A DNA stretch of 64,000 bases from NCBI GenBank assembly GCA_039621445.1, contig CP154954.1:46355847-46419846 (forward strand). The letters are read 5' to 3'. The position numbers and the translations under genes are program-made. Below the pieces are notes generated by a model that saw only the letters and a list, made by a program, of their open reading frames with translations, made no database searches and was not told where the DNA came from. The DNA is from Euglena gracilis. Taxonomy: Eukaryota. This document shows, in pieces, positions 16,951 to 64,000 of the stretch (positions are counted from its first letter, which is position 1; every line of letters starts with the position of its first letter).

Positions 16951-16959
16951 GGTCGACAT

Positions 16960-17118: not shown

Positions 17119-17122
17119 TAAG

Positions 17123-40900: not shown

Positions 40901-43900
40901 CCCCAAGGGTGGGCTCACTGGCCAGTCCAACTTTCTAGCCCGAGCCCAGCAAATCCCCCCCGGGTCTTTAAAGAGATGTTTGGGTGCAACCCCTCCCGTA
41001 AAGAGATGTATGGCGTGGTTTAAGAGTGGGTGGTGGGTGGGTTGGGGCTGCTGGACCCCCCATGGTGTCCCACAGGTCAGTCTGGCCTGGCCAAAGGGGA
41101 TGCCGACACACGGTGTACGGCACACCGTGCACACCGTGTGTCTTTCAGCGCCAAAATATTTTTCAGAAAAAAATTGGCACTGATTTTTGGGCGAAAATCA
41201 ATCCGAAGCGCAAGAAAAATTGCAGTTTTGAACTGCTCACAAAAAAAGGCATTGGGCTGCTGTTTTTGCCGTCTTCGGTGTAGGTCTTTGTTGCCGTGAA
41301 GGTTGTCAGAAAATTGTTGATAATTATTTTTCATTTTGGGACAAATTTCATCGAAAGACGCATGGTGTGCAGGGTGTTTACGGTGTCCCACATGTTGTGC
41401 CGCACACCGTGTTTCGGCATCCCCAAAGGCCGTGCCAGAAATTCTTTTCGAGGGTTTTGGCCGATTCTGGGCATTTTTTGGTGGGTGGGTGGATTTTTGA
41501 ATAAAAAGCAGGTGGGTGGGCTTGGATGGGCATTGTTTTAACTCAAAAAAAATCCAAAAATTTAAGGCATTTGAAAGTGCCTTTTCTAGGGCAGTCCGAA
41601 GGCTGTCTGGGCATTGAACCAACGTTTTTGATTGTGCACGGGGATCAAAATAATAAAACAAGTCCAAAAACACATTTTTTTTGCGTTTTGGCTGGATGGA
41701 AATGTGCCAGAAATAATTTTTCTTCCCTAAGTTGGCCTCAGAAATGCCATTGAAATGCGGTCTAAAATAGGCTTAAAGTTGGCAGAAACTGGCCCAGAAT
41801 CGTAATGCAACTCCAGCGCATTGGTGGACCACCCAAATCCAACAGTGAAACGTATGCTTTGCTAAGCCCAGGTGTATTTCTAGCAGCAAAATATGTTGTG
41901 TTTCTGCTTTTGGCGTGAGACAAATCTTTGGACCACATCGAGCTGTTTGTTTGTTTGTTTGTTTTTCGGCGCATAAATTGAAGCATATGGTCCAGGTATT
42001 TTTTTAAGTTTGGACCCCGGGGGGGAGGGGGAGGGGTAGGGTGGGTGGGTCCGCCGGACCCCCTCCCCCCCCCCCGGGGGGGTCCCCCCGGAGGGGGGTG
42101 GGATTTACTTTTCGGCGCCGCAGGCGCCGAAAAAATTCTATTTTTAGCACTTTTCGCGATTTTTTGGCCATTTTTTTGTGGGTCCCCCGGGACCCCCTCC
42201 CCCCCCGGGGGGGCCCCCCCCCAGGGGGGTGGGTGGGTGGGGGGGGGGACCCCCCGGTCTTAAAAAAACCCCTGATATGGTCCAGTCTCTGAGTTTTGGT
42301 TGCCGGTTTAGTCGTAGTCCCTTCACTGTCCCTTCCCTCACCGCACAGGTCCATCACCACTGGATACTTCAAGGTTGCCCAGTGTCGTGCACGCCCTTTT
42401 GGCCAAGACCCGGTCCACACCCATGCTTACCCGAGCCCTGCTGCTGTGAAAGAAACGGGTGCCGTGTTTCATTTAAACTTGTTCGTCCGGCAAATCCCCC
42501 TTGCTGCGCAATGGTGTGCTGCCGTCAAGGGCTCCCGTCAGCCCTGCCGAGGCCCCGCTGGATTTCCAGTTTGTGAAGGACTACTTGCCAGGGTTCGCTT
42601 CAGGGAATTATCTGTGGAGGCTTTTTTCTTTTTTTTCCAACTCAGAAGACCCCCCCCCCCCGGGTCTGAGGCCGGACCCCCCCCTTCCCAGGCCGAGTTA
42701 TGGGTTTTGGCAAGAAGTGCTGGAAAAATTTTGTGAACCAAGGACGGATATTGGATATCGGCCCATACGGGTTTATCGAAAATCTTGAATTTATCAGGTC
42801 CCGAAGAAATATCGTGAAATATCGGCTTTATTTGGGGGGGGGGGGTAACGCACTTTTGTTGTTTTTTTTAGGCGATTTTTGGATTCTCCAAATCACAAAA
42901 ATGAGGGTATCGGGGCACAAAATGATCATATCGGTTTATTGATTTTTATCAAGGATATCGGGGTGTCAGTCTATCCAAATTTATCGGAACCCCCCCCCCC
43001 TAAAACCAATATCAATATCCATCCTTGAGTGAATTGCTTTCAGATGGCCCGATTTTGTGGGGAGGGGGCAGGCTGGGTGGGTGGGGGCAACCCCCGGGGC
43101 CAGAAAAAGACGCTTGGTCTGTGGAATCTTTGGCAGGTCTGGTGGTCTGAGCCAGTCGGGAGCGACCCCCTGCCCCCACTCCAGCTTGGAAAAGCTGACC
43201 CAGCCCGAGAAGTGGACCATCGACACCCTGACCAGCATCGCCAAGGACGCCATGGATGATCATGCCAAGGAGATTGTGTATGCAATTGAAAGGTATGATG
43301 TGAATGTGTATGAGAGGTTTTAGCGTCGAATGCTAAACCCGCCCCCAAATAATAACCCCCCCAAATAATACCCCCCCCCCCCGAGGACCAACGTCAGCCA
43401 CCCAAGTAATAAACCCTCCTCTCTTGCAGCTGTGAAGGCATTAAAAAGAGGGAAAAAGCAGCAGAGATGTTGCAAAAAGGACCACAAAAATGGATGAAAT
43501 TGGTGCAGAAAATATGCAAAAAAGAACCAATTTTTTTTTCAAAAAGGACCAACAATTCCGAAAATGTGACCATTGGAGCCTCTGGAGGGGTTTTTGGGTC
43601 GATTTTTGACTTCGAATTTCCCCCCCCCCCAAATAATGGGCCCCCAAATAATTACCCCCCCCCCCCTAGACCCACCCAGACTTCGAGTGTCCAAATAATG
43701 ATTCACCGGGGGGGGGGTTATATTTGGGGTGTTTATATGGCACCTGGTCTATTCAATGTCGCCGCCTGTGTTGGGGGCCCAGGGGGGGGGGGGGAGGGAG
43801 TCCAGGCAAAAAATTGTCAGTCGCCCTGAAAAAACCAGTCACCCACCCCTCGGGGGGTCAGCCTGTGACTAAGCGCTTGTAAGCTCCCAACACAAATGTA

Positions 43901-46900
43901 TGTTTTTTATTGCCGGAATTGGATTGATCGACACAAAAAGCACATAAACAGTAGTCAAAAGAATCTTAAATTTCAAAAACTAGCTGGTTTCAATAAAATT
44001 TTGAGGGAGGGTTTGGTGCATTAGGTGTATTATCAGATATGGTGAAACAGCACCAAAAGCTGTTGTCCATCTCCTTTCAGCTTCTGGAAATATTTTATCA
44101 CAAATCTATTTTCTTTTGATCTGAAGGTCCCTCTATCTCAAACAGCCTTTTCACCAAAGAAGTCCCTGGACCGTCAGCATTCCAGGAACTGGCGGTGCTT
44201 GGAGAAAAGAAACAAGCCCGGAACAACATGTACACACCGCACAACACGATCGCGCGCGCATATGCGCACTTCCTCGTGCGCACCCATGACCCCCCCAATC
44301 GCACACATATGCGCTTGATGTGACGAATCGCGCACATGTGCGCACAATCTGATCCCTCCAGTATGGTGTGTGTCTTGGTGCTGGGAAAGGGGGGGGGGTC
44401 GGCAAATGACCACAAAAGTGACCTTGTGGTGAAGGACCCGGAAATTTTTTTGACCTGTTTTTCACATTTGTGGTTCCTTTGGATTCCAGAGTCACCCACG
44501 CCACTTTTTTCGGAACACCAGTCAGTCACTACGATCAGCCACCTGGGAGGGCTGACTGGTTTTTGAAACAGAAGTGATTCCCGGGGGTCAGAAATAATTG
44601 TATGGTTGAGAGATGGCTGGTTTGCACTTCTTCTTGCCGTCAAGAACCTCTTTGTTGATCCGAACAGGAGGATCTACAGCGCAACTGGTGATGCTAAATT
44701 GGCCGCTTGGTATCTGTTGGATTCCATTGCGAAGAACGTTGGTGGAGTCTATGTGAACCGATTCGCTGAGCATTTACCCAAAATGGCCTGCCGGAATATG
44801 CAAATCACTGGTGTCATTCCTCCCTTTCATCCTCCCTTGTTTGTGATACCACCCTCTGTCACCAGGGTGTCTTCCACTGATTCTTCCGAAAGAGCATTGC
44901 CATTTATAATCCCCGTCTCTGAATTAAAGTGCTGGTGCATTGATGGCAGACCGCCGCTTTCAGCAGCGGGAGTTGTGTTTCTATTTTTTGGACCTGTTTG
45001 ATACCTTTTTTGGACCTGTTTGATTTCTGTTTATTTCTGGAGGCTTCCCATTAAAATTGGGGGTGCGCGCGCGGTGGACCGGACCGAGGGCAGACTTGTG
45101 GTGGTCCCACGCTTCTATTGGTTCCACAATATTGGGAAATATCTTTTTTAGGGAAGCAAACAGGGCACCAAGGTTTTCCACATTGCCAAATAACAGGTAC
45201 CCAGAGGGCCAGGGTCAGTACGAGAGCTGTCCAGTGGTCTTTCCGGGGTGGCATCTCTGTGCCACCGCAGGGTCCAATCAGCAGAAGTATGCAAAACTCC
45301 TGCGGACGTGGGCGGAGATGGCCGTCTTCCCTCCGGAGGTCTTCCAACGCATCAAAGAGGAGGCAGCTCGGGCAGCCCAGCAGGAGAAAGAGAAGAAAAG
45401 TCGGGAGCGTGGACGGCAAGGAAACGAAGAGGCCTTTTGCCAGACAGGTCCATCGTCGCTCCTCACGCGCTTTGGGCACGCCACATCAAGCTGAATTCAG
45501 GGGGGAGTGTGCGGCAAAAATGCCACAAAAAGCGCAGTTTTTTTTTTGCCAAGCCAACCTCACAAATGATTGAACAATTATCAAGGTGGGGTTGCAAGAT
45601 TTTTCCTGCATCGTTGCCACAGAAAGACAGCAATGTCAGTTTCATATCCATGAATATCCATACTAGGGATCCCCCATCTTCTCAAAGTCGGACGAACGAT
45701 TGGTATGCAATGCCTTCATTTCCAAGTGGATAAACCCACCATTCATGAACCCCTGGGGTTGGTGGGATCTGGTTTGGTTTATCAGCCAAAGGGACAAAGG
45801 GCCAAAGGGCCAACAGTTCCTTACATCAAGGAATTGTTGATCAAAGCAGATCTCCAAAATCAGATCCCCAAAACGATCCAATGCACCCTTCCAAATACCC
45901 ATTTCCCCCAAAATTTCAAAAATGGTGTGTGTGTATATATATATATATATATTAAAAAAATTATATATGTATATATATATATATATATGGCAGGCGGGTA
46001 GCAGGCCCCCCCCGGGGGGGGGCCTCCCTGCTACCCACGACCCTGCACTGGGGTGTTGGGGTTACTGAAGGAGTGGGGTTTGGGTCCCGGCTGGCCGGCC
46101 TCTCCAGGACGCACATCCCCTCCCCACAATGTTTGGCCTCTGCCACGCGTGCTCCCCCCAGGACTGAACATTGCCACTGTTGGGGTCACCACACAGGGAT
46201 GGGCAAATCCCTTGTGGGGGCCGACCGTTCGGCGGCCTTTATCTTTCTTCACCCCTGCCTGTCTGCCGCCTTTGGGAATCGCACAGCATGGCCCAAGGGA
46301 GGGCGCGGGGGGGGGGATGTGCGTCCCGGAGAGGCCGGCCAGCCGGGACCCAAACCCCACTCCTTCAGTATCTCCAACAACCCCAGTGCAGGGTCGTAGG
46401 TAGCAGGGCCCTCCCAGGGGCCCCCCCTGCTACCCGCCTGCCATATATATGTGTATGTATGTATGTATGTATTGTATGTATGTATGTATGTATGTATGTA
46501 TGTATGTATGTATGTATGTATGTATGTATGTATGTATGTATGTATGTATGGCATCTGTGATTCAGGATCCGTGCTTATCCTGAAATGGATAACTCTGGAT
46601 AACTACAGATAAGAACGGAGAAGTGCGAAACCCGAAATACGGATGACCATGGATAAACTACGGATAAATATGGATATGTATGGATAAATGTGGATAACTA
46701 TGGATATGGGGTCTGGCATAACTGAGGAGGGCTTTTGACTGAGAGGACGGGAGGTGTTTCATGCATCGTGCACATCAGCATTTGGATGCCAGTCAAATTC
46801 TTTTGATTGGTATTTGGACGTCTCAGAAGTTGCATTTAATCTGCTTTTCCTCATTGCATTTCATTGCATTTTTTTTGGGTGTTTGTCCCAGTCAATAACC

Positions 46901-49900
46901 TCCCCCCTAAAAAGTGCACGGGTGCGCGTATTTTAAGGACATAGTTTCGTACCCTGCAGGGGTGCGTGCACTCATTGGGGCACTGCTCACGGCAAGGCAC
47001 AAAATAATAAATTTTCCACCACTCTTGAACAGTTTTTCCTGTTCTTGTGATGTCAAGCAATGAGTCAGGTGACTATGTGTCAAATTTGGGCTCAGATGAT
47101 AGAAGTATTTGGTCTGAGGAAGACAGTATTGAGAAGGAACTTAAAGTCAGCATAATTGTGTGTGCTCTGACCTGATGTGGCAACAGTTTCTCCTTTGGGG
47201 GCATGCACTTTTTAGGGAGGTAGTTTGGGACCCTTTGGTGGTGCGCATTAATTGGGGCACCTCACATAATTAGGGCACTGTGCACTTATCAGGGGGGTTA
47301 CAAGCGTTTTTGCAATTACAAATAATTACAGATAATTATGGACAACTATGGATGACTATGGATGAGGATTTGACCCCCAACGATGGATAAGCACCAACCC
47401 CTGTGTGTGTGTGTGTGTTATTTTCACAAAGTCTCAATGCTGTTATATGTTTCATATATGATTAGCAGGGCTCAGCTTGTTGAATGTGGGGCGGGTGTTT
47501 CATAGGACCGGGCTTGCTGAAAAAAATTCTTTTTGACGTACCCCCTCCCCCTAAATGAACCCCCCTGCCCCACTGTTTCTCTGATTTGAGATTCATTGTT
47601 GCTCATTCATGTTTCAGTTGTCTTCCAATAATGGCAGCTCTGTGAAGGTTTTGAATTGCAGATTACATCTTTCAATGTAATATTCTGCTTTTTTTATGCG
47701 ACCTTTAGAGCATGCAGCTCATGACGCTGGGCCAGTCGGAGGAGCAGCTCGCATGCAGCATTCTCCTCCACGAGATCGTATGTTCTTTTGCTTTCCAGTT
47801 GAAGTTTTTATCCATTTTCCCTTGTCTTGGAGGTTTTCCAGTTGCATTGGTGGCAACTAAAGATGAGAATGCATGCTTTGAAGAAAATGGCCTTGTCTCA
47901 TACTGTATGTGATGATTTGACTAAAAGGTTCAAAAGTGGTCTTCTGTTTTTTTTTATTGGGGCAACCGGATGACCAGGGTTTGATATAAGGAGGGCGTAC
48001 ATGGTTTAGGTGGGGGGTGTCCCCCCCACCCCCCCTCCTGGCCCGCAGGGGGGGGGGGGGCGGACCACCCCCCCACCTGTCCTTATATCAAACCCTGCGG
48101 ATGACCCAAAATGTTATCTCGTGGTTTTGATGTGTGTCACAGAATACTCTTTTGCAAATGATTTCTGAATGGGCACCCCTTTTTTGTTACATATGTCAGC
48201 TAGAACCAGGCCCGACCAGGGGCCAACCGGATCTACAAAATTAGCTTGGCAAAAAGGCCATCTCCCAAAACCCTTTATGCTTCTGTTCATCAATGCTGTA
48301 AATATGTCGACAGACAGGGTTGAATCATATAACTCTTGCCCCGGGACAGGCGCCTTTTCGCTGAATGGGGCACCTCTTTTCAGGGCCCCAACCCCATCCT
48401 CCCGACGACCTCGTCAGTCTGGCGTCGACGTTGCCGAAACCCCCAGAGGACCTTGTGGCCTGGCTGTGGCACAGGATTCTCTGCCAGAAACCCGCCACCC
48501 CCTTGCTGTGTATGAGGTCCGACACGTCATCGTTGGAATGACCAACTTCCAATTGCATCTTCGCCTTTGAGAGAGGCCATCAATTCTCCCACTCACCTGC
48601 CCAACTGATGTGTGATCGCTGGGTGCAATAGACGTGGAGGTTTGGCCGCCGTTGACATTGCTGGGCCGCCGCATTGCCAGTGCCGAACCTCCGGCGAGTC
48701 AGAGCACAGAGCGTTGCGAACGCTGTTGCATTCCGGGTCGCCCACTCCGTTCGGTGTGCCCCGGCTTGCCCCGGCCCTGGTGGACGAGGGCGCGCCCACC
48801 CCTGGCACGGCCCCACCGCTGCCCCCCATGCCACCCCCACCCGCCGCCTTCCGGAGCGAGGGCCTGGGGCCCACCCCGCCCCGCCCAGCCTGGCCTCTGG
48901 TGGCAAACAGGAAGCCTTGGCTGCGACCGGCCGCTGCCTCCCCCCAGCCTGCGAGACTACGGAGCACCACTCCCACCGACGCCTCCCCCCCTGCCCCCGG
49001 GTCCCCCAGTGCACCTCTCAGTGCAGCACCATTCAGGCAATCTGGGCCATTCTGGGTTGGTGGGTTCCCAGTCAAAAAAACAGTGTTTTCCAGTTCAACG
49101 CATGGCAAGCCAAGCTGTGGTGGACCGCCATCCAATGGACAAGAAATATGGCTTTTGCTCAGAAAGTGGACGTTCATTTGTTGCGAGGGAGAAAGTCCGC
49201 CCCACATCCGGCTTCTCCTGTGCCTTGTGCCTCCCTCCGGCCCCGGCGGCCTGCGACGCCCCTCGCCGTTTGCTGTCGGGGACGGGGCCCTCCCGCTCCC
49301 CCCGGTTCCGCCCCCGTCCTCCTCCCTGCTGGCGGTGGACCCCGAGCTGGCCCTGCTGCAAGAGCGGCACCGCCCGGGACATTGCCAAAGGGGACGCCGT
49401 GTACCCAGTGGAGGGGTGGGCCCCCAACGGACTCTGGAGGAACCCTCCTTCGCCCTGGACTGCTTGTTTTCCCCCCCCAAAATGCACTACCGACGCAGTG
49501 TGCCTCAGATACCCCTGGGTTTTTTGCAGAAATGGCATTGGTTGATGTTTGCCCGCAGGCGGGCAAACATCATTGCCGAGGGCGCACGTTACCGGGACTC
49601 AGAGACGTTGCAGGGACTTGGGGGCAGGCCCTTTTTTTTGGCTTGTAAGACCCCCTCCCCTGTGCGCGCGCATGTTCACTCACCACACGGAACACACCCG
49701 GCCAGATGCGAAGTCCGCGCTGGCATTAAAAAAATGAACAAACAAGAAACCTTTTTTGCATCAAAAGGGGGTCCGGAGCCAGGCTGAGTGGGGAACCCCT
49801 GGGGAAGTCTTCAAAAGAAGCCTGCTTGGGGGTACGGGTTGTGGTGGAACGCGACGCCCTGGCGCCGCCTACAGCTTCTCCAGCTGGAGAGGGAGAGGGA

Positions 49901-52900
49901 CGAGCTGCAGCGCCGCGTGGCGGACGCCGAAATGCGGCGGAGTGGCGTGCGGCGGCTGACCGAAGACCGCCGACCCGCCCCCAAGGCCGCCAACCCTCCT
50001 CCGCGCGAAGAAGAGGTGTGGCGGCATGGGCCGGCCAGGCATGTTGCCCACCGCACATCCATGCCATGTGAACATTGGGGTTGGGGGAAGGGCAAAGCCC
50101 ACTGTTTCATGTCCTCTGTATTTGAGAGGGGCTAACAGCCCAAGTAGATTACCAGTCTTCGTTCTGAAAGGGGTGGAAAGTGTTTTGATTTTATCTCAAT
50201 GGTGAGGTTAGCAATGTGGATTGGCGTGGATTGGGATGGATTAGTTTGGATTGGGTTTGCATCGGTGATGGGCATCTTTTTTGAATTTATCATTTTCATT
50301 TTTTATCATATTCATATTTATCATTATTTATCATTTTTCATTTTTTTTTTATCATATTCATAATTATCATTATTATTGTTTGTTTTTATTACAGTTTTTT
50401 GTAGCTTTTGCATTTTTTTTTGTTTTTTGTTGTATGAACTGTATGAATTGCATTCGCTTTCTCCCAGACTGTGGACCGCATCATGGCTGCGCCTGTGGAA
50501 GAAGTGCAGCCACCTCTACCCCCAGTGCCTCCTTGCCAGGCTTTTCCTCCTGTTCTCTTTGGTGTCAAATTCCATGCCGAAACACAGCAATGTGTTCACC
50601 CCCCCCCCCCCAGAGCTGACCCTGAGCCCCTTGGGTGGTGTATGAAGGGGGTTGTCCATTGAATATCCATTAGTGGGTGGGGTGGGTTGGGCTCCCCCCG
50701 CGCCAGGTTTTCTTTTTTCTTTTTCAGAACTTTCAACGGGGATCCTTCAGATGCCTTCAGTACCGAAGGAATTTGTCCTTGCGAGCTGGCATACCCACCG
50801 TGTGGCCCTGCCCCCCTGCTGCCCACCAGTTGGAGGGCAGGCACAACACTTAGGGTATCCCGGTCCGCTGGCTGACACACGGCAGGGCACCCCCCCCCTT
50901 TCTTTTCCAGGAATTCCTGGCTGGGTGGGCCCCACGGCCGCAACCAAACCGCAGTGCCCAGTTTTCTGCACGTTCGGGTTCTCCCACGCCGAATTCGCAT
51001 CAAAGTCCCCCCCCCCCTGATGGTGTCGGAGTGCTGTTTCACAAACAAAAGCCTGCCCTCGGCCCGCCCCCACTGCCCGCCACCGCCCCGCCCAGCAGCG
51101 GCGGCATGCAGATCCGGCTGAAGACCGAGGACTTGACGCAGCTGCACACCGAAGAACGCGCAGCGGCGGTGGAGGTGGAGATGCGCGTCATCCCCAGCGT
51201 TGAAGGTGCTGGCCCATGAGTTCCACTCCGCACTCCCTCTGTCTGGTTTGAGCAATCTTTGTCCAACAATCCAGTTCAAGGCAAATCCTCCAATTTGACA
51301 CAGTTTCGATCAAAATTTGCTTTTTCTGATTTTTGTGAACACTCATCCAAAATGTTGGGAAAAAATTACCGCCCCTGCCAAGAGCTGGCTCCCCTCTTCT
51401 GTTGGAGTCAGGGGGTTTTTTTTTTAGTCTTGGACCCTGGGGGGGTAGGGGGGTGGGTCTGGCCGAGCCCCCCCGGGGGGGGGTCCCCCCAGGGGGTGGG
51501 ATATACTTTTCGGCGCCAAAGGCACCGAAAATTTTGAAAAAGGTGCCTTTTTTTTAGCATTTTTGTTATTTTTTGGCCTTTTCAGGGAAAAGTGGGTTGG
51601 GCCCCCCATCCCCCCCCCCCGGCCAGGGGGTGGCGGGGTGGGTGGGGGACCCCCCCTCCCCCCAGTCTTAAAAAAAAAACCCCTGGGTGGAGTGATCATG
51701 GTTGACAAAAGCAAACAGGGCATTTAGCCATTGTGCATGTATTATGTGCCCATCACATCCCTCTGTTACGGCTTACACCGAAAGGTGGCTGTCGTTTTCC
51801 CTGGGGACAAAGACAGACTACGTGGCGATGCACACGCGGCCCCTTCTCTCTCAGTGGGCAATCCCCGGCCCGTTGCCTGGCCATTCGCGGAGGGGGCTGG
51901 GGCCAGTGCCCCCCAGCCAGCCCCGCCCCCGCCGCCCCCGCCCCCGCCTGCCGCCCCGGCGCTGTTCAGCGGGCCACCCCCGGACACCCCAGACCAGCAG
52001 CAGTGCCACCTTCAGGTGCCAGAGCTCTCCAAATTCCCTTTGCACTGTTCAGGGAATCAACGTAATGGAAATTATCACTTGCGTTGGGAGGGGTTGGTGA
52101 GTCGCCCAGCCAGTTGGTCTGACGGGTGGGGGTTTCTGGTGATAAAACCACTCATATGTGTACAACTCATATGTGCATGTGGATGTCGTTGTTCAACAGC
52201 AAAACAAACAAAACTATTTAATTGGCTTACAAAGCCTTCCAAAACAAGCTCAAATGGTGCCAAAGCCTTCAAAAAAACTCCAAATGAAGAGAAAAATAGG
52301 TAAAGCTTGTAGATGGCGTCGGGGCAGAGGTTTTTTTGTTTTTGGGGGTCGGGATCCACCTACCCACCCCTGGGGGGAGGTCTCGGGGGGGGGGGGGCTT
52401 GGGGGACCACTTTTGGGGTCAATTTCGGGGTCCAAAGGTTCTTCGGTGTACGGTGCCCACTTTGCCCAACCCCCGACCCGGGGTTGCAGGGTATTCAGAC
52501 TGATCTGCATGGTGTGCGCAGTTACAACTCTGCACCCAAAATCTGAATTTCGAAATTGAAATCTTCCCAAATTTGCTTTTTCTGAAGTATTATTTTCCTG
52601 TCATTTTTACGTTCCACGATCTTTGTTCAGGCTTTAAAAGATGAACGCCTGTGCAAGCTTTTCCATTGATTTGTTTGTTTGCCCCTGATCTATCAGTCGA
52701 ATATTTGACAACAATGGTAATAAATTTTGCCTTTTGCACAAGGGGTGTTGCAAAAAATTCTTGTTTTCATTTGCGGGATTTCATTTTTCAGACCAGCCTG
52801 ATGAAAAACATGAAAGTCACATTGGATCCAGGCTTTTGCTTAAGGACCCCCGGGTACTGGCTAGCCAATCGGCTAGACACTGGAAAAAATGGACTAGCTA

Positions 52901-55900
52901 GACCCCCCTCCCCCCCGGGGGGGGGTCCGGGGGTCCCCCCAACTGGAATTTTTTTCCTCCAGTTTTTTTCCTTTTTTTTCCTCCAGCGCTGCGCGCCGAG
53001 GTGGAAATGAGGTTTTTAATAGGTTTTTGGCTGATTTTGTTCCAAAAATTCCCAAAAAAAGTTTCTGGTGCTTCGCGCCGGTCACTGGAAAAAATTTTCC
53101 ACTAGCTAGCCCTGCTAGCAGACCCCCCCGGGGGGGGGGTCTGCTAGAAATCCCACTAGCCAGATTTGGACTAGCTGCAGTCCAGCCCCCCCCCCCCCCC
53201 GGGGGCACTGCAATCCCTTAAGCAAAAGCCTGATTGGATCGTTGTGAGTTTGGTGAGTAAATTGCTCGAAAATGTGCTCATGTTTGTGGCAATGGTGACC
53301 AATCATCAGTTGTTGTTTGCCATAATTACTTGATTGAGAGCGTCCTATTGCGTGTCTTTTTTGTCCCTTTTCACACATTCCAGCCTGGAAGGGATGTTAA
53401 ACCTGTTGGCTCAGGGCTGGCTGACGCGGCTTTACCAGTCAAATCGGCGTGCCATTTTGGTTCCATCGTATGCCTTTTGTGACTCAGGATCAGATCCTGC
53501 AGCTGCAGCAGTTTGCTGTTTCGTTCAAGTGCCATCGCCGTCAATCCCCCCAATGTCGAACAATTTATATTTATATGTTTATATCTCCACAGAAAATATT
53601 CCACACTAGGTGGGCTAACATTTGGCAAGACAATGCGCGTCAAGTTCAGCATCCTGACATCTGAGACCCAAGCCCACTACAATCGCTCAGTCACTTAACC
53701 CCCCCTGAATAGAAGCCCCTGGGGGCAACTATTCGGAACGTTGGTTGAAAACCGAGGGGGGGCTTCTATTCGGGGGGGGGGGGGGGCACTATTCAGAAAA
53801 GTGGTCGAAAACCAGTGGGTTCGAGAATTATCGAAGAAATTTCTTCGTGGGTCTACATGCCCTACCTTCTAAACCATGTCAAATCTGCTGCAAATGTTAC
53901 TCTTGTGAATGCATGATCATTAAACGTAAAATCATCCAACCCTCATTTAGAGGTATTGCAAAAACTGGAGCCCTGCACTAGACATTTACCCCCACCCCGC
54001 ACACCCCCACCCCCCCACACCCCCCCCCACACCCCCCCACACTTGACCCGTGTAGGCTCCAGTTTTTGCAATATATGCTCATTTTACCAAATGCTGAAGA
54101 AGCCAAAGCCAAAGCATTTGCCGTCTCAATTCACAGACAACCCACGGGGAGCGGTCTACTATTCGGGGGGGGGGGGGCACTATTCGGAACGTTGGTTGAA
54201 AACTGAGGGAGGGGGACTATTCGGGGGGAGGGGGCGTCTATTCAGGGGGGGTAGTCACTGGCAGACCCCCAGGGTTTGTGACTGTTTCTTTCAGAATGAT
54301 TGAGTGGTTGTTGGCCCAGACCTCCTCCCCCCTTGGGGGTGGTCTGCAAAAAAATGAAATACCCAGTGCTGAAGGCGACAAAAAACCCTTTTTTGCCATT
54401 TGTTTTTTTGTTTTTTTACGTTTGTGGTCAATTCCCCCTTGGGATTCAGAGTGGCCAACCCCCCCCCCACCAGGTAGTGGGTGGTGACTGACTGGTTTTT
54501 GGAAGTGTGGAACTGACCCTAGGGCGGTAAAAATTGCATGGAACCCGTGACAAAATGCTGGTGGTCAACCGTTTGATCGCCCCAGCCAACCGTCCAGCCA
54601 AACCCACCGTTGGCCCCCGAACGTTCCGCTCACCCCTGCGCGGTGGCGTTTGCCCCCGTTCCATGTCGGCGCGGAGGAGAAGTCACTGGAGGAGCTGGCG
54701 AAGGGGGCGGAGGACCTCCAGCGGCTTCAGCAGCTCGAGCAGCTCCAGCAGGAGGAGTCCTCGGCGAGGACCGCCCAGGGCGTGCCTGCCGCGGAGGCCC
54801 CGACCCACCGAGCAGCGCAGGGCGGGCCCGCTGGCTGTGTGACGGCCCGCGAGGGGTTGATCCAGCCGCAGCGATTTGGTCCTCTCAAATAACATTTTGC
54901 TGTCCACATTTTTGTTTTAATTTGATCTATTTAATTTGATTCAATTTAATTGATCGGGTCGCAGCATTGGCATCGGCATTAGTATTAACGTACAGCATTG
55001 CTGCGTGTTTCTGGTTTTTTGCCTCCTTGTTTTTGTTTTGGCCCGAGGCAATGCGTTTGCCCCCATCGCGCGGAAGGGTCCGTGCCACGGTTCCCGGCGA
55101 TGTGCCGGCCTCCCTCCATTCCTTGGCGTCCGGCGCCGCCCTGCGGTGGTCCCAGTGTGCCTTGCACTTCCGCTTCCGCTGCGGCCCCTTCCTGCAGCAA
55201 GGTGCCGATGGGCAGTGGCGCTGCCTCCCCCGCTTCGCCTGCCAGTACTCCTCCCCGCTGGTGTGCAGGGGCCCCCTTCCCGCTGAGCTGTTGGAGCCCC
55301 ACTCCTGTGATGACGTCCCAAACATCCCACGCACATCCCTTTCCCAAATGGCGACCACATCCATTCCCCAATAGAAAGCATTTTTAGATCGTTTGAAGCA
55401 GGACGAGAAGTTGATGCCCTTGCGGTGCCCTTTCACAGCTAGTTGTTGTTGTTTTTTTTAAAGGGGACAGTTACAAAAGAAAATGGCAGCTGACCACCCC
55501 TGTGGGCCAGGATCTGAAGTCAAGCTGTTTGGGGACGAGTTCAACAAGCCGGCCGCCACCCCCTTGTGTGATGTATGCCAACCCATCCATCCTCGGGCTA
55601 TACCACCCCGTCACAGATACCAGCGGTGGCCGCCCCCAGCGTGGAGGTTCCCCGCAGCATGCCTCCCGCGGAGCCTCAGCCTGCCCAACGCGGGCGCAGT
55701 GCCTCTGTGCAGTCCCTCTTTTGGCCGTTTGCAACCGAAATCTGCCGCGTCAGGCGGAAAGGCTTGCGGCAGTCTTTACGCCGCAACTGAAAAGCTGAGT
55801 GCCTCGGTTGGCTGGCTTTGGCATGGCATGGTGATGAATGGGAGGGGCTGGGCCCAGCTCCAGTAGCTCCAGCAGCAGCTCCAGCAGCCGACACAGCGAC

Positions 55901-58900
55901 AGCACGCGCGCCCCAACTCCGGAGCCGGAGAATGCAAACGTCAACTGGCACGATATTAACGTTGGGCCTGCAGGCTATGGTCGGAGGCTGCTGCGGAAAG
56001 GGTGTGCTGAGTTTAAAGATTCCCTGCAGGGGGATCCTGCATAATCCTGCATAGGTCTGTCTTTATAAATTCCTAAAACAGCAAAAGAATACCCAACCAT
56101 AATGGGTTTCAGAAGGACAGGAAAAACAATTTTCTGTTTCGCTTGATTGGTATTCTGTTAGGTGAGGAAATTGTTTTTCAATCATCCCACTTTTTTCTTG
56201 AAAATTTAATCAAAGAATTTTGAAGTTGAATTTTGGTACATCTCAAACCAATTTGTGTCTTTGGTATTGAGTGTCAGAGAATTTTTTGGCACCATTTTCA
56301 CAAAATATTCATCATCCTCATCAGCATTTTCCTGTTTTGAATTATTTTCACAATAATCCTTCAGGGTCGATACATTTTCCACCTATTAAAGTTGGCTGAA
56401 ATGCATTTTGTCAAGCTCCATCTTGTCTGGCAGCGCATTTTTGAAGTGCCGCTGAAAAGAATGGGCTGATGGTGTTTTTTTTTGATTCACAAAAGGCGAC
56501 TTGCAAACTCTGAAAAAAAAAGATGTTTACAACCGCCAAAATCAAGCCCTCACTGGGGCCTAAAACTGACCCCCTCCCCCGGGGGGGGGGGGTGCCTGCT
56601 TTGCCAGAAGCGAAGCTAGTGGCGGCAATAAACAGGCAAGAAGCCTCAGTGCAGCCTAAGGGGGCTTTGGGCAGGCACCACATTGCACAAGGTGCCCCCC
56701 TGGGATTGACAGAAACGGATCTTTGGCTTTCACATATGCAAAAATGGCCAGAAATTGCAAAAATGGATCGGATTTGGGCTGGCCAGGGCAAATTTTGGGT
56801 CAAAAAACCCGTGTTTTTTTACACCCCTGGCAGTTTTTTGGGGCTTTTTTGGAGTTTCAATGTTTTGATCCCCGGTTCGACTCCCAGTCTGGCCCAGTTC
56901 CAGCCCGGGGGACCCCCATGGGGGGATTAGCCAGCAGCCTTATTCCAGCCAGCCCAAATTTTCCAGCTTCTGACCTGGACCCCCCTCCCCCTCCCCTCAT
57001 TAAGCAATGCCCTGGTCTCAGGCCCAACCCCCATACATTCTGGGAGCATAATTGGGAAAACGGTTGCGTCATCTTTTGCTTCCTTGTGGTTTTGTGTGGC
57101 GTTTGTAATTTTGGGAACTTTGAAAATTTTCAAAAAAAAACTTGTTGGAAAAGCTCTAAGGTTGAACCTGCCTCTGGGGTAGGGGTTTTCTTAAGCTGTA
57201 GGGGGCTTTGCTTCCTGGGGGGGTCCAGTCAGCCATCACTTTTTTTTTTTCAAGCCAGCACCTCCCAGCCAGGCTGTGGACCCCCCCCCCAGGGGTCCGC
57301 TGAAACAAAGTTTGGGCCAGCCCAGCAAAGCCAGCCTGGCAGAAAATTTTTGAAGAAAGGGGTCAAAAAAAAATGGACAAAAATGGCATTTTTGGGTGCT
57401 TTTTGGGGTTTCACTGCTGAAAAATGCCAACCCAGCTGTATTTCAGCTTTTTCGGGTGTTCTTGGGTACCCACCGGGTCCAGCTCCCAGCCGGCCGGACC
57501 CACCCCCCACTCACCACTCACCTGACAACTGGGCCAGAAGCGAAGTTAGCGCCGGCCATGTACAGAAAAGAAGCCTGAGTGCAACTAAGGGAGCCCAGCC
57601 AGCACCTTTTTCCAGCCGGCCCGCGGACACCCCCCCCCCCCCCCTGCTTGGGGTAAGCCAGAGTCACAAAAGCAGGTTGGTTGTAATTACTCAAGGAACA
57701 TGGTTCTCTTTCTCTCTCTCTCTCTTTTGTTTCAGGTCTCAGGTATTCCGAAGGCTTGGAGATAAGGCCAGTTCACCTGCAGCACAGCGTACTCAAAGTC
57801 GAAGCCGCAGCAAGAGCCGCAGTAGAAGCAAGAGCCGAAGCAATTGCCGCAGCCGCAGCAAAGGCAGCCACTCCACGCGCAGCCGGTGTGTACTCCCCCG
57901 AAATATAGAACCAGTTCTAACCCTCGGAGGGGTGTTCCAAATTTGGTCAAGAATTTTGTCGATCCGAAGGTTACCATTTTCCCCTCACCATGTGCAATAA
58001 TTTAGACCATTTTTGGAGAGTATTTTTGGTTGCTTTGGTTGGAATTGGTGGACGAAATTTATCAGGCAGCATTTATTCAAAAAAATTGTCTCTGAAATTC
58101 CGAACCTCAAATTTTTTGGTGCTTTTTTATTCTCCGTTTCAAAACCCCCATTTCAGGGAGTGAAGTTCAAATATTTGGTCGCTAAATCAAGGACCCCAGG
58201 AGGGTTCTAAACCCCCCCCCCCACTTACTAACCCCCCCCACTTACTAACCCCCCCCCCCACTTACTAACCCCCCCCTCGGGCCGACCAACCAAACCGGGA
58301 CTTATAAACCCCCCCCTTCGGGGCAGGAAAATGAAAGCCGCCGGGGCCGATTTTTTTTGGCCTCAAACCACCCAAAAACTGATTTTTGGCCCTTTTTTTG
58401 AGATCGACCATCATCAAAAATGCCATTTTTGACCAAATTTACCAAAAATTGCCATTTTGGGGGGGTTTCGGGGTCATTTTTGGGGTTCGGATTTTCACCA
58501 ACAATTCCGGGACTTATAAACCCCCCCCCACTTACTAACCCCCCCCTTCGGCCGACCAACCAAACCGGATCCTACTAACCCCGGGGGTTTATAAGTGGGG
58601 GGTTTATATTTGGGAGGGGGGGTTCAATCTGTCTTTGTTCCTTGCACACAGGCATAATGATTTTGGGGCAATTTTGAGGCAATTTTTCATTTTTTTAAAG
58701 GTTTTTCAGGATTTTTTTTAAAGGCATTTTGAATTTTTAAAAAATTTTAAGGCGTCTATTTTCCATGGGACATCAAAGAGCTATCCGGGCATCGAACCAA
58801 CGTTGGTCCAGGCTGAAAATGAAAAGTCCAAAAACACATTTATTGGGTGGATGCACAATGTTCAAGGGATGCCAAAAACCATCTTTTTTCCCGGAGTTGG

Positions 58901-61900
58901 CTTGTTCTTGATTTTGTGACTTCTTTTTTCCAAAAAAAAATGCAAGGTTTTCAAGGTTTTTAAGGCTTTTAAGCGCCTTAAGAAATTATTAGGCCTGCTT
59001 GCCCCCCCCCCCCCCCGCGCACCATCCACAAAATGGTGCGAAATGATGAATTAAGGAAATACCGTCTCCACTTTTCTGCCCTTCCCCCCCTTTTTTCAAG
59101 CCACAATTTGTGTGGGTGCACAGCTTTAAATATCAGCAAACAGCATTTTGCAGGCAGTCCAGGCCCCATTGCTGCCACAGAGGCAGCCGCAGCGCCAGCC
59201 GCAGCAACAGCCGCCGCAAGGGCCCCAAGCAGGGATTTTTTTTTTAAAAGTTTGGGAGGAGGGGTCCATTGGACCCCCCCCCCCCAGGGGGGGGTGGGAT
59301 GTCACGGGAGGTAGGTTCGTGGGAGGTAGGTGCCGCGGCCGGCCGGCCGTCAACCAACCAAAACAGGGGTTTGGTTGGGCCGCGGCCGACCGCGACCCAA
59401 CCATGGCCATATTTTGCTGTCAGAATTCTGATTTGGTTGGGCCCCAATCAAATTGCAAAAGGTTATCACAAAACAAAAAGATTTTATGACGTTATTTGAA
59501 GAAATAGGGTTAGGGTTAAGCTTCTCATGCAAACAGTTCAAACCTTCCCACTCAACTTCGGTATATTGGCCTCTACAGGGTACTCAGCGAACCCAAAGAG
59601 CCACCCAATTAGGGTTAAAAACATGGGGGGACCTGAGCGGTGCGGAAGGCGCCGAGCGAGGGTCCCCCCATGTGTATTAACCCTAGTTGGGCGGCCTTCT
59701 GGGTTCGCTTAGTACCCTGTAGGAGCCAATTTAACCGCCATTGTGCGATGCAGTTCGCTGGGTCTGTTGTGGTTGGGTGGCCGCGGTCCAACCAAACCGA
59801 ATTTCATGATTTCAGCATCGGAAATGGTTGGCCCGCAGCCCAACCAAGATTTTTTTGGGTTGGGCCGCGGCCGGCTGCGGTCCAACCAAAGCAGCAAAAT
59901 GGTTGAGCGGCGCGACCCTACCTCCTACGAACCTACCTCCCCTTCCCCACCACCCCCCAGGGGAGTTCCTCCAAAGGGCTTGGTGGGTTTTGGCCACTTT
60001 TTGGCCTTTTTTGGCGCGAAGCGAATTTTTTTTGACCCCAGAATTGGCCCCCCAAAAGTGAGTCCCCGGACCCCTCCCCCCAGGGGGGGGGTAGGGGTAC
60101 CTTCTGGGTTGGTATGGGGGACCTCCCCCCGGTCTTAAAACAGTCCCTGGCCCCCAAGGCCGAGGGGGCCAGGGAGAAGCGGTCCAGCAGCCCCAGCCAG
60201 GCGAGCCGCAGCCCGAAGAAGGCTCGCAGGTGTGCTTTTTTTTTCTGGATAACTGCTTGCTTTTGAGATTTTGTTAAGTTGGCATAGGTTCATGGTGCTG
60301 GCAAATACCTTCTGCGATGCATTGGAGTAAGACAGGCATCTATTGTGGTTTTGCTGTCATGAACCATCACTGGTTCTGCGGTATACTATTTTTTTGTTGG
60401 GACCCATTTTCATCTGCAGTCCAAGGAAGAAATTACTGCAAATGATTCTGGGTGAAAATATCATGGGAACAATATTTTGGGAGTATTTTGATTGTGAATT
60501 TTTTTGGGTAAAATGAATTTTTCATCCTGTGCCAAATCTTTTTCAGACCACATTGCAGCCAGAAAACCCTTTTCCCCAAAGTGTGGTGAGCAAACTGCTC
60601 AAAAATGAGTCACTCGCAAATATCATACACCGATGATGGCTGCTTTTGATGACTGGCCTGGTATGGCATTTGAGGATTTCATTCGCCTTGGCTCAAGGAG
60701 GTGTTGAAAGGTGCAGAGGGAAGAAAGGCGGCGCCCTGCCGGGGGGGGGGGTTCTTTGGCAGGCACTCCAGGGCCGGGCGGGGGGGGGGTAGGGCCTGTT
60801 GCCAAAAGTGCCTGGGCACTCGGGCAAGGCACTTCTGGCCAGAAACGCCCATTTTTGGGCACTTTTTGGCACATGACCAGCAGGGGGGGATGGTGCCTGC
60901 CTGCCCAGGCATTCCAGGGCACTTGGTCAAATTCAGCCTGGTGAGGGTGTTCCCTGGATTTAGGATTGTGGTCGAAGTGAGGCTTTTTTCCTTGGACTTG
61001 AAATTGGGTGGGGGTCAAATATTATGGGAGGAAGTCACATCGAAAACTTTGATTTTCACACCCAAATCTATTTTTCTGGCGCTTGTTTTTTGTGCAAGTT
61101 GGAAATTGGAAAGTTGTTTGTTAGGGGAGAGGGGAGCCGACATACCTCCCCTCTCCCCCTCTTTGGCACCCTGCCTGCCCCAGGGCGGACTCCCAGGAGC
61201 GGGAGGCAGCCAAGCGGAAAGCCGCCCCGGGGCCCCACAAGGACCCGGTGCCCCGGAAGCTGTCCACCGCGACCCGCCGCGAGGCGCCGGCCCACCCGCC
61301 GCCCGGCTGGGAGCCCCCGCCGCCCCCTGTGGGGCCCCCACCGGGGCGGCCCCCCACCAAGGCCGCAGCCCAGCGGGGAAGGGAGAGGCAGGGCGACGGA
61401 AAGGAGCGGTCCCACCCCGCCCGTGCATCTCCTTGCCGTGTGGGGGAAACTTGCACCCCCCGCAGATTGGCCAAAGGAGGCCGGATGAGAGCGGTGGCGG
61501 CGGAAAATTTTTCGACCATTGTTTTGCGTGTTTTCCCCTCAAAATAGTCTTTTTGGAGGATTCCTTTTTTTCCTCGATTTCTTCTTGTTTGGGGAAAAGA
61601 CCACATGAAGAGCTTTTGCGTTCTCTTGTGTTCCCTCTTAATGCAGAGTTTTGGATCCAGGCTTCTTTTAAGGAAGGTTACCCCCCCCCTTGGGTGGTGT
61701 GTGCAGGCAGGGGGGGGGTATTTTTTTTAATAATCCCAGGGGTGTACCTTGTATGCAGGGGTGCCTGACCATAGCAGGCACCGCTGGTCCAGACTGGGGT
61801 TGACCCAGGTAAAGTCGTTTTCGGGCTTACCCACTGCCCACCCCAAACCTGACCCTTCGGGGGATCAAAGTGCCTGCTTGGACCTGAAATATCCACCTAA

Positions 61901-63023
61901 TTTCATGGGTTTCCTATTTTTGATGGCAAGGGATGACGATGTGGGTGCGAAGGTGGATGCCAAGCGAAGAATTGTTTGGGAGATGTCAAGTGGATGCACG
62001 GATCCGATGCACCAAGAGGGCGGAAGCCTCCGCCTCCTCCTCCGCCCCCCGAGGAAGATTGGGGACAGACTTCAGCATTTGAAACGGAGGCCAAGGATAC
62101 CTTTTGAAAACAGACTTCTTTTTAGCACCCCCCCCCCAGGTCACCAATTGGAAAAAATTTTCTGCTTGCTGCCAAAAGCATGAAATGTGTTCCAAAGGTG
62201 CTTGGTTTGAGATATCCACAATGTCCTCCCACCAAATCAAGGTTCAAACGGTTCTGCAACACCGATTTTTTGAAAATATCACAAAAAAGGCAATTTTGCT
62301 GGAATCCCCCCCAAGGTCCCAATGTGGGGGATGGCAGAGTGGGTGCATGGAGGGGTTTCCCTCTATTTTCGTTGCACAGCCCCAATTTTTTTTGAACTCC
62401 AAATTGCCCCCCCCCCCAAAGTGGGTGCTCCCCCTGAGAGTCCCCCTCTAAGGGGTGGGGTGGATGGGTCCGTACCCCCCAGGTCCTAAAAAACCTCTGG
62501 TGCCAGGGGTGCAGTTTTTTTGGCAGGGTGTTTCCTATTTGCATGAATAGTGGTACAGAGCTTTGACATGGAAGGGGTTGTGTTTTGGGGCAGGTGGAAC
62601 ATGAAAACAATTCGAACCATGTTTTTTTCGGACGGGGCCTAGCTTGGACCATGTATGTGCTGGCACCATAGCAAAACGAGCAGATTTGGTCAAAGCCTGA
62701 CACAATAGGCACAACTGTCATTTTGGCCATCCTGATGGGTTTTGCGGCGTTTCTTTTTTTGACGTTCTCCAGCGGCGTTTCTTTTTTTGGGCATCTCCAG
62801 CGGCAGAAGCCTGTTGACCGACGACGTGCAACCCGACGCTGCCGCGAAGCACCGGAGGCCCAGCCATCGTCACGAGGAGCCGGCGGCTTCCCGCGGAAAG
62901 TGGGATGGCCCGGTGTCCTTTGCGGAGGAGCCCGCTGAGTGGGATGACCCTCCACCCCGGGAACGTGCGCCAAGGCCAGCACTCCACCCTGCTGTGTTCT
63001 TGAGACCACCGAATGAGCGTTAG
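19948..63023 (+). CDS. Large multi-exon host gene (span; exon set incomplete): RRM + Pcf11-like CTD-interacting domain + Pro-rich + RS-rich protein
   Basis: Runs of phase-compatible GT-AG exons: 19948-19974, 20020-20094, 20140-20286; 30215-30298, 32600-32792; 42349-42412, 43185-43292, 44668-44810, 45271-45447, 47709-47777, 48384-48516; 57743-57885, 59154-59226, 60156-60229, 61184-61409; terminal 62801-63023. Continuity between runs is inferred and could represent two genes. Confidence 0.6.
21023..21300. mobile_element. hAT-like MITE family A copy
   Basis: CAGGGGG-T-run ... GGTCTT-A-run-CCCCTG with the shared core GATATACTTTTC(A/G)GCGCCGCAGGCGC; TSD degenerate. Confidence 0.7.
25701..26300. 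repeat. ~111-bp minisatellite, 5 full units plus a partial unit
   Basis: Units start CTCAAATAACAAAATCCC at 25701, 25814, 25923, 26035, 26146 and 26257. Each contains GGGGGCTCCGCCCCC. Confidence 0.95.
30215..32792 (+). CDS. RRM domain, split over exons 30215-30298 and 32600-32792
   Basis: Spliced: EIVQLRGLPDDTNDSNIKTQIQ|AVYGPVDWVITLARNGGRIGFLTFKDAETARQLIAAGRLEVAGTTVTASRA (RNP2 VQLRGL, RNP1 RIGFLTF). Phase-0 GT-AG join. Confidence 0.8.
30528..30790. mobile_element. hAT-like MITE family A copy
   Basis: CAGGG...CCCTG ends; 8-bp TSD CTTTGAAA / CATTGAAA. Confidence 0.85.
36348..36658. mobile_element. hAT-like MITE family A copy
   Basis: Same ends and core; TSD GTTCGGAC / GTCGGAC (1-nt indel). 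Confidence 0.8.
38011..38499. mobile_element. hAT-like MITE
   Basis: Perfect 16-bp TIR CAGGGAATTTCTTAAG; perfect 8-bp TSD ATGGGAAG. Confidence 0.92.
41993..42274. mobile_element. hAT-like MITE family A copy
   Basis: CAGG...CCTG ends; perfect 8-bp TSD ATATGGTC. Confidence 0.9.
42349..45447 (+). CDS. CTD-interacting domain (CID), Pcf11-like, over four exons
   Basis: Spliced: TRLEKLTQPEKWTIDTLTSIAKDAMDDHAKEIVYAIERRIYSATGDAKLAAWYLLDSIAKNVGGVYVNRFAEHLPKMACRNMQITGSNQQKYAKLLRTWAEMAVFPPEVF. Contains the CID hallmark YLxDSIxKNVG and the TW..FP end. Confidence 0.88.
45989..46442. mobile_element. Foldback-type MITE with ~130-bp inverted arms, inserted in a (TA)n tract
   Basis: GGCAGGCGGGTAGCAGG...GACGCACATCCCC is mirrored by GGGGATGTGCGTC...CCTGCTACCCGCCTGCC. 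Flanked by TATATA. Confidence 0.8.
46452..46550. repeat. (GTAT)n microsatellite
   Basis: Seen directly. Confidence 0.95.
47975..48097. mobile_element. 123-bp hAT-like MITE
   Basis: Perfect 16-bp TIR CAGGGTTTGATATAAG; perfect TSD CGGATGAC. Confidence 0.92.
51409..51685. mobile_element. hAT-like MITE family A copy
   Basis: CAGGG...CCCTG; TSD GTTGGAGT / GGTGGAGT. Confidence 0.85.
52829..53232. mobile_element. hAT-like MITE
   Basis: 17-bp TIR CAGGCTTTTGCTTAAGG; perfect TSD ATTGGATC. Confidence 0.92.
53696..54253. mobile_element. TA-ended MITE with a nested insertion
   Basis: TA(A)CCCCCCCTGAATAG ... CTATTCAGGGGGGGTA, flanked on both sides by GTCACT. Confidence 0.65.
57743..60229 (+). CDS. RS-rich exons of the host gene
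   Basis: SRSRSKSRSRSKSRSNCRSRS...|RGSRSASRSNSRRKGP|KAEGAREKRSSSPSQASRSPKKAR. Phases match the neighbouring exons. Confidence 0.75.
58208..58607. mobile_element. TA-flanked MITE with CCCCCCACTTACTAA subterminal repeats
   Basis: TAAACCCCCC..CACTTA(C)TAA ... TTATAAGTGGGGGGTTTATA; a related end occurs at ~33250. Confidence 0.6.
59230..60149. mobile_element. Family-A-like hAT MITE with nested elements, inserted in a coding exon; candidate non-conventional intron 59227-60155
   Basis: CAGGGA...TCCCTG ends; TSD GCCCCAAG / GCCCC(C)AAG. Nested element 59306-59941 (25-bp TIR GGGAGGTAGGTTCGTGGGAGGTAGG) and a smaller one at ~59610-59685. Confidence 0.8.
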
Positions 63024-64000
63024 TTAGTGAGTAGATTTGTGTGCCTATCATTAATTAGGGGGAGATATTATTTATTTTGGGGTCCGTTGTTGCCCTCCCC
63101 CTTGGTGAGAAAGTGGGACTGCGTGTGCTTGTTTCTGACATTTCTCTTCGTCACTGCCCACATAGCGGATATCTCCCAAAGAATGATCCCTCTGCTGCAT
63201 ACTGGTGAAGACAAACAAAAATGGCAGAAAAATCACCAGGTACATCCAAAAAAGGTACAATGAAAAATTGATGAATTGAGCCTGTATGAATTTCAAAAAT
63301 TGTGGTCATTGCACAAAAAGTTACAAAAAATATTGGCCTGGAGAAATTGGCGAAAGAAATTTTGCAGTCATTTTTTGAGGTTGATAATCTAGCCCAACAT
63401 CCCCCCAACCCCCCCCCCTGGGCTCTGACTTCGGTGTTCAAATCATTATTATTTAGGGGGAAACACTCAAGGGGTAGGATGTTGGTGAAGGTTTGAATTT
63501 CCAATCTTAGCAAAGCCCTCCACACCTTCCTGTTTTTTTTTCTCCCCTTTTCAGGGTGCCGATATACATGTGGACTGAGGAGGATAGAGCTGAACACTGA
63601 AAATACAAAATGCCCAGACATGGAAATTGAAAACGGGCGATATTTCTGCCAAAAACCAGTGGGGACCCCCAGGGAATGATAGCAGCGAATAGCACACAAG
63701 GATCATGTCTTTGGAGTTGGGTCTGGGCTGCACAGGCCTCACACAATGCGCGTTGCAAGGGACCCTTTGGCACCACACCGGCAACCCTCCGTTCCGGCCA
63801 TCACACGGGGAGTGCTGCCCTCAAAACCAGCGGGTCAAAAAAAAGTCCGAAAAAATCGAAAAAATTTCGGACAGCCAACCATGAGTTTTTTTGGCCTCCG
63901 GCCCCAAAAGAGTGTTTTTTTGGTTTGGCCTCCCGCCCGGAAAACAAACTGTTTTTGAGCCGAAAGAGCGTTTTTGTTTTTGCCGCCAAGCCCGGGCGGA

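Follow-up and report, generated by a model that had tools for sequence, protein, structure and literature searches.

What becomes of a coding exon into which a transposon has inserted itself, complete with a stop codon in the reading frame? The question is raised by a locus of Euglena gracilis, within 64,000 nt of contig CP154954.1 (assembly GCA_039621445.1, forward strand, positions 46,355,847 to 46,419,846; this whole stretch is referred to below as the window, and positions are counted from its first letter). Here a MITE (a miniature transposable element with inverted repeats) of hAT-like type interrupts an exon of a gene rich in arginine and serine (RS-rich). We consider it fairly likely that the element has been removed from the RNA as a euglenid nonconventional intron from its insertion onward. 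The gene, the element and the predicted intron are arranged as follows; GC3 denotes the G+C content at third codon positions.

55838–56001, + strand: probable upstream coding exon, with an ATG start, an open frame, a donor (GG|GTGTGC) matching the GTGTG consensus and a phase 2 that fits the next exon.
57736–57885, + strand: RS-rich exon between the acceptor TTTCAG|G and the donor CG|GTGTGT, with phase 2 at either end.
59154–59226, + strand: left half of the interrupted exon, acceptor TTGCAG|G.
59222–59229: left target-site duplication GCCCCAAG, 8 nt.
59227–60155, + strand: nonconventional intron of 929 nt, as predicted, in phase 0 and of the form AAG-CAG...CTG-GCCCCC|A.
59230–60149: MITE, 920 nt, ends CAGGGA...TCCCTG, a member of a ~280-nt family enlarged by nested inserts.
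59304–59945 (limits approximate): nested insertion with long inverted arms of its own (GGGAGGTAGGTTCG...).
59562–59733: innermost palindromic element, 57-nt arms, 84% complementary; its core, 59576–59719, has the ends CAGGG...CCCTG.
60150–60158: right target-site duplication GCCCCCAAG, 9 nt, one C extra.
60156–60229, + strand: right half of the interrupted exon, donor AG|GTGTGC, phase 2.
61184–61408, + strand: probable next exon, acceptor CCCCAG|G, donor uncertain (CG|GTCCCA), GC3 0.91.
62801–63023, + strand: probable last coding exon, ending in TAG.

Five + strand segments are mutually consistent in phase, and the introns neighbouring the interrupted exon are all phase 2. The first base of this exon is G59154, and the codons of the RS-rich frame run from 59155 (translation QSRPHCCHRGSRSASRSNSRRKGPK). 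Upstream of the element the frame reads ...CGC AAG GGC CCC AAG; it enters the element at 59230, continues as CAG GGA TTT TTT TTT and meets TAA at 59245–59247, five codons in. Downstream, the same protein frame (KAEGAREKRSSSPSQASRSPKKAR) extends from AAG at 60156 to CGC AG|GT at 60229/60230. In the proposed frame GC3 is 0.92 in the left half (over 59155–59229) and 0.96 in the right half, while within the element it is 0.55–0.57 in all frames. The value of 0.96 is obtained only in the frame given by removal of 929 nt, and falls to ~0.68 (hand count) in that given by removal of 928 nt; 929 nt is the only removal length that keeps the high-GC3 frame. Predicted removal of 59227–60155 joins the two halves in frame (...GP|KAEG...) with C|A at both junctions, and places CAG at +4 to +6 and CTG at −9 to −7 of the intron. 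The original prediction had described this course from the sequence alone, with the early TAA, the resumption of the frame beyond the element and a proposed removal with a pyrimidine and a purine at each junction, and was borne out on each of these points.

The ends of this interval can be compared with a published splicing code. Nomura et al. (2025; PMC12501133) used knock-ins in E. gracilis to define the code of nonconventional introns as 5'-N3CDG-/-CH'GN5-6|R(exon)-3'. According to that report the donor spacer is exactly 3 nt and the first exon base is a purine; the acceptor spacer is 5 nt, with one additional base tolerated at the cost of 30–40% less transcript. Synthetic 50-bp introns carrying the code features alone plus 12 nt of pairing were spliced (PMC12501133). 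In the predicted intron a 3-nt donor spacer, AAG (59227–59229), is followed by CAG (59230–59232). At the other end, CTG (60147–60149) is followed by the 6-nt spacer GCCCCC, which is the tolerated, less efficient length. The first exon base is the purine A at 60156; a 5-nt spacer would give C at this position and a frameshift. The ends are also predicted to pair, since both the minimum free energy and the centroid folds join CAGGGAUU with AGUCCCUG (z-score −13.6). Intron positions 4–11 are paired with the 8 nt preceding the 3' spacer, leaving the first 3 and the last 6 nt unpaired. The earlier suggestion that the interval fits euglenid nonconventional introns is thus upheld by the match to the code and by the predicted end pairing. 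In addition, the ends of the MITE, CAGG and CCTG, agree with the consensus described for E. gracilis nonconventional introns, CCAGG at +3 to +7 and CCTG at −9 to −6 (PMC11170887). The predicted boundary can be slid over 59223–59230, because of the target duplication.

This geometry suggests how an insertion could act as an intron as soon as it arises. A cut-and-paste transposon, hAT-like and non-autonomous, would have entered a coding exon of the weakly expressed RS-rich gene, duplicating 8 bp. Nonconventional splicing would cut 3 nt before the terminal CAG and 5–6 nt after the paired CTG, so that the element would be taken out together with a single copy of the duplicated target. The pre-mRNA would lose 59227–60155 and recover the original frame. 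With CAG...CTG ends, an 8-bp duplication and cuts at 3 and 5 nt, the mRNA that existed before the insertion would be restored. The spacers of the code, 3 + 5 nt, add up to the 8-bp duplication, and an exonic MITE insertion would therefore be precisely removable at once. Two nested insertions and an extra C in the 3' spacer would have followed later; the extra C of the exonic element falls in the 3' spacer, where one additional base is tolerated. Position 6 of the duplication, which is the would-be first exon base, is a purine in 6/6 cases (five clean duplications and that of the exonic element, a small sample). This hints that target choice and the splicing requirement are matched. We raise tentatively, as an idea whose chances we put a little short of even, that the nonconventional code is an RNA-level mirror of hAT-type transposition. 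CAG and CTG would correspond to the inverted repeats and the spacers to the duplication, every exonic insertion would be born removable, and the present locus would have been caught in the act.

The element in the exon is one of a family. The ~280-nt family has at least six copies in the 64 kb, the five others lying at ~21023, 30530, 36349, 41993 and 51409 with the same ends and aligning to the outer two parts of the exonic element. The flanks of these five copies vary in preservation.

41993–42274: family copy, perfect 8-bp duplication (ATATGGTC).
51409–51685 and 30530–30790: family copies, duplication 7/8.
36349–36658: family copy, indel in the duplication.
21023–21300: family copy, 3/8, duplication not recognisable.

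A blind scan of the window for CAG...CTG pairs with terminal inverted-repeat matches of at least 11/14, followed by comparison of the flanking 8-mers, gave 78 pairs. The flanking 8-mers differed by at most one mismatch in 5/78 and were identical in four of those. As controls, 20 shuffles yielded 16–36 pairs each and no hits, and shifting the right flank yielded 0–2/78. One more 7/8 duplication was recognised by eye. The identical cases include members of three other MITE families.

38011–38499: further MITE family, duplication ATGGGAAG.
47975–48097: further MITE family, duplication CGGATGAC.
52829–53232: further MITE family, duplication ATTGGATC.

The common end form of these three families is CAGGnnnTTnnnTAAG, and across the sister families the ends read CAGGG, CAGGT or CAGGC; judged by their termini, it is as if they had been mobilised by related transposases. 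In the DNA run X1 the word depth of the bins containing 47975–48097 and 52829–53232 is ~216,000 and ~684,000, respectively, and MITE-bearing bins in general show DNA-contig word depths ~10 to 10,000 times those of single-copy bins. A further CAGG...CCTG element of 349 nt, with flanks CTTGCACA and CTTGCCCC (6/8), was observed at 58649–58997, within the conventional intron 57886–59153 of the gene.

The exonic element has the 8-bp duplication of hAT MITEs (here 8 versus 9 nt) and short terminal repeats in inverted orientation that follow the (C/T)AGGG pattern, and its family is small, non-coding and multi-copy. The hAT superfamily is described as having inverted repeats of 10–25 bp and 8-bp duplications (Rossato et al., 2014; PMC3942097), and the 5' end of Ac/Ds as C/TAGGGATGAAA, likewise with 8-bp duplications (Du et al., 2011; PMC3260210). 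The 10 long open reading frames (ORFs) scanned in the window contained retroelement domains only, and no search was aimed at a hAT transposase. The element is accordingly termed hAT-like, a two-out-of-three assignment. The Merlin superfamily, for which elements with 8-bp duplications and inverted repeats starting with GG have been reported in E. gracilis (Lopes et al., 2021; PMC8101967), was considered and rejected, as in the present elements CAGG comes first, its C lying directly next to the duplication. The initial claim of a hAT-type MITE of a recognisable family within a coding exon is therefore supported by the hAT-like ends, the 8-bp duplications and the sister copies.

The exonic member is longer than its relatives through nested insertion. 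In the alignment the ~280-nt family consensus breaks off after ~59303 and returns at ~59945, with an insert of ~640 nt between. The arms of this insertion (59289–59330 and 59917–59958; 42 nt, 83% complementary) enclose the palindromic element. Neither insert has another copy within the 64-kb window; their repeat nature is indicated by DNA word depth, since the DNA-contig word depth of the bin 59475–60041, which holds them, is ~72,000, compared with 60–140 in single-copy bins. The nested insertions proposed originally are therefore real, with a broken consensus and inverted arms of their own, and they suggest, at the level of conjecture kept by that proposal, that the element is old and has persisted in the exon. 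After the innermost element, 59576–59719, come a 5-nt spacer and then a purine. With its CAGGG...CCCTG ends this element would conform on its own to the code for nonconventional introns, and it may be an intron within an intron.

Several features of the gene bear on whether there is a coding exon to be restored. Its clear conventional donors, at 56002, 57886 and 60230, read GTGTG in 3/3 and its acceptors CAG, as in the consensus given for conventional introns of E. gracilis (PMC11170887); these putative sites support a euglenid host. A scan of the window with Rfam matched no family, and the long ORFs of the window yielded no conserved cellular gene that could confirm such a host or demonstrate further nonconventional introns by homology. 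Searches for a transcript-derived protein were likewise negative. The exon 61185–61409 as query in the 'longer' search gave 197 candidates, none scored, and the ORF over the left half exon gave no candidates in the 'near' search and three, none scored, in the 'longer' search. Comparison of the last exon with 1.84 billion representatives returned two hits, both repeat proteins sharing a W-D-G/x-P motif only, and these were judged spurious. The host gene appears to be lineage-specific, no relatives having been found in these searches. Upstream of the gene, at 54551–54892 and 54940–55371 on the + strand, lie open frames of high GC3 (0.76 and 0.71), one of them coiled-coil-like (EEKSLEELAKGAEDLQRLQQLEQLQQEE). 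A CAG...CTG pair at 54818–55194 in the same area may mark a further nonconventional intron.

Evidence from reads concerns transcription, excision and the state of the alleles. Reads of the RNA runs X21 and X24 and of the DNA runs X1 and X9 were mapped to positions 47001–64000 of the window. RNA depth over the gene is below ~2 (bin 55506–56072 in X21: 1.32/3.54). At 57844/57845 there are five RNA reads in X21, with the first mate on the − strand in 5/5, and two in X24; at 61208 there are three in X21 and two in X24. These stranded reads on exons indicate weak transcription of the gene, with the + strand as the sense strand. Many reads lie only partly on the mapped stretch (508/575 in X21 and 368/397 in X24). 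At 57527–57590, 59001–59020 and 53186, many RNA reads match only there and run into unrelated, partly C-rich sequence; the loose ends number 15–59 reads and are probably transcripts of other repeat copies. The filled site is present in two DNA runs, as contigs X1 record 6 and X9 record 14 bridge 59229/59230. Over 47001–64000 the DNA contigs of the two runs depart from the window at many single bases, and do so in common. Taken with the mixed sites, these differences suggest heterozygosity and another strain or haplotype.

A number of points weigh against removal of the element as a nonconventional intron. The first concerns the code itself. Its fit and the restoration of the frame follow almost automatically for any CAG...CTG element with an 8-bp duplication, and therefore speak for competence for splicing, not for splicing itself. 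Second, the 3' spacer is 6 nt and not the preferred 5, unless the run of Cs is an assembly error. Third, intron position +3 is G where the E. gracilis consensus has C. Fourth, the predicted intron is long and, through the nested repeats, heavily structured. No RNA read over the predicted joint appears among the 15 of 752 joints listed, a table filled with repeat-derived joints of DNA contigs; this listing is silent rather than negative, because the conventional introns of the gene are equally absent from it. Finally, the DNA runs have sites with both letters (for example 47520, 49240 and 55560), indicating heterozygosity, and the junction-spanning contigs have ~0.65–0.68 times the depth of the neighbouring listed contigs (our own ratio). 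In view of the heterozygous sites and this lower depth, a second allele that lacks the element is possible.

The most serious competing explanation is that the element did no more than disrupt the exon. Splicing would then pass over the exon entirely, with 57885 joined to 61184, or the locus would be a null allele or pseudogene whose function is supplied by an empty allele or a paralogue. Skipping would keep the frame, because the exon is 150 nt (76 + 74) and both neighbouring introns, like all those around it, are phase 2. The segment lost would be low-complexity RS sequence, the heterozygous sites and the lower depth of the junction contig would suit an empty allele, and the knock-in study (PMC12501133) saw incidental exon skipping where nonconventional introns were defective. 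Set against this, both conventional splice sites that flank the exon are intact and both halves have kept open frames with the high GC3 given above. The element, moreover, has every tested feature of a code that is sufficient for synthetic introns, and no empty-site contig is present among the rows listed, a minority of all rows. We regard loss of the exon as unlikely, while giving it real weight.

It could also be argued that the half exons are non-coding, that their RS-like frames arose by chance in simple sequence rich in CAG and CGC, and that the element lies in non-coding DNA. The halves are short (25 and 24 codons), of low complexity and built of 12-nt periodic repeats, and no homologue of the gene was found. 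Chance would nevertheless have to account for five consecutive segments with consistent phases, CAG acceptors and GTGTG donors, for a GC3 of 0.96 solely in the proposed frame, and for stranded RNA reads on the neighbouring exons, and we therefore think it very unlikely.

Least likely of all, with hardly any probability left to it, is that the ordinary spliceosome takes the element out at some cryptic GC-AG or GT-AG pair: GC-AG introns occur in E. gracilis (PMC11170887) and a script lists 35 frame-keeping GT/GC-AG pairs (for example, the donor GC at 59194 and, at 60041, the acceptor TTTTTTTGACCCCAG), but the only GT (59157, 4 nt into the exon; 8/35 pairs) would leave a 3-nt exon, the other 27/35 use three GC donors (CAG|GCCCCA, AGC|GCCAGC and CAA|GCAGGG) unlike the GTGTG of the gene, which is read in 0/35, and most of the candidate acceptors are without a pyrimidine tract. 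As far as the splice-site sequences allow a judgement, there is no usable GT-AG alternative, and weak GC-AG pairs or in-frame exon skipping would be what is left. The claim that a usable GT donor is lacking was thus correct, the single frame-keeping GT leaving an exon of 3 nt. The stronger claim, that the element could be tolerated only as a nonconventional intron, holds as regards the GT donor and otherwise goes beyond the evidence, because a transcript lacking the entire exon would stay in frame too.

Excision of the element as a nonconventional intron, the reading preferred here, may be set beside several known systems. Like euglenid nonconventional introns (PMC12501133; see also Milanowski et al., 2014, PMC3935182; Gao et al., 2024, PMC11170887), the predicted intron has no GT-AG ends. 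The two also share CAG at +4 to +6, a paired CTG near the 3' end and a purine as the first exon base, with the ends held by pairing and short direct repeats at the junctions that make the boundary 'slidable'. Conventional and nonconventional introns likewise occur in one gene, here by prediction. The present case differs in its 6-nt 3' spacer, in that excision is predicted, and in its body, which can be recognised as a multi-copy MITE that carries nested insertions and has sister copies outside genes.

The resemblance to maize Ds and other non-autonomous hAT elements lies in the 8-bp duplication and the short terminal inverted repeats, in the first 7 nt of the exonic element, CAGGGAT, which are those of the Ac/Ds 5' end, and in the occurrence of heterogeneous short derivatives with foreign insertions. 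Internally, the element is unrelated in sequence, with many runs of G and C. From maize exons Ds is removed by way of cryptic spliceosomal sites and therefore imprecisely; the removal predicted for the Euglena element is a precise one. The Merlin elements of E. gracilis (PMC8101967) are also DNA transposons making 8-bp duplications, and are set apart by repeats starting with GG rather than CAGG. Introner elements, transposons resembling MITEs that give rise to spliceosomal introns in Micromonas, in dinoflagellates and elsewhere (reviewed in PMC11282704), are similar in that the insertion is an intron at once and the target duplication supplies part of the junction. Introners bring or create GT-AG ends for the spliceosome, whereas the predicted intron ends are AA...CC and removal would need the euglenid CAG/CTG system. 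A spliceosomal introner was considered for this locus and set aside, the only frame-keeping GT lying 4 nt into the exon.

Elsewhere the window contains the following repeats, beginning with DIRS-like retrotransposon copies on the − strand over 3–13836.

3–941 and 7539–9326, − strand: DIRS-like ORFs, reverse transcriptase.
9372–10448, − strand: DIRS-like ORF, tyrosine recombinase of the phage-integrase family.
1252–3027 and 10452–12479, − strand: DIRS-like ORFs with Dam-like and C5 DNA methyltransferase matches.
12277–13836, − strand: DIRS-like ORF with a weak cold-shock-domain match.
16953–17120: tandem array, 10-nt unit (TCGGCACGGC), ~17 repeats.
25667–26314: tandem array, ~111-nt unit, 5–6 repeats.
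46443–46559: microsatellite, (ATGT)n.

Nonconventional introns make up 71.8% of the introns in E. agilis, and their origin 'remains unclear' according to the knock-in study (PMC12501133). An origin of euglenid nonconventional introns from MITEs is a printed hypothesis (PMC3935182, PMC6221363, PMC11282704, PMC12501133, PMC12621601). It has been proposed since 2014 on end structure alone, at a time when, as stated there, no transposable elements had been identified in euglenid genomes (PMC3935182). A 2024 review terms CAG/CTG the terminal inverted repeat ('TIR') and the junction repeats 'TSD-like', that is, like a target-site duplication. Within the literature searched, supplements excepted, no paper names a superfamily or states the 8-bp arithmetic, and none presents an identified family with non-genic copies that acts as such an intron or has been caught in an exon. 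To this the locus adds a named multi-copy family with the hallmarks of transposons, one member of which lies in an exon in the exact geometry of the code, and the arithmetic link 3 + 5 = 8. If the predicted joint is absent from the transcripts, the gene would be an ordinary one disrupted by a transposon or skipping an exon. If the joint is confirmed, the locus would be a concrete case of the birth of a nonconventional intron, and the question of their origin would become testable genome-wide, by counting the exonic members of such families and dating them by divergence.

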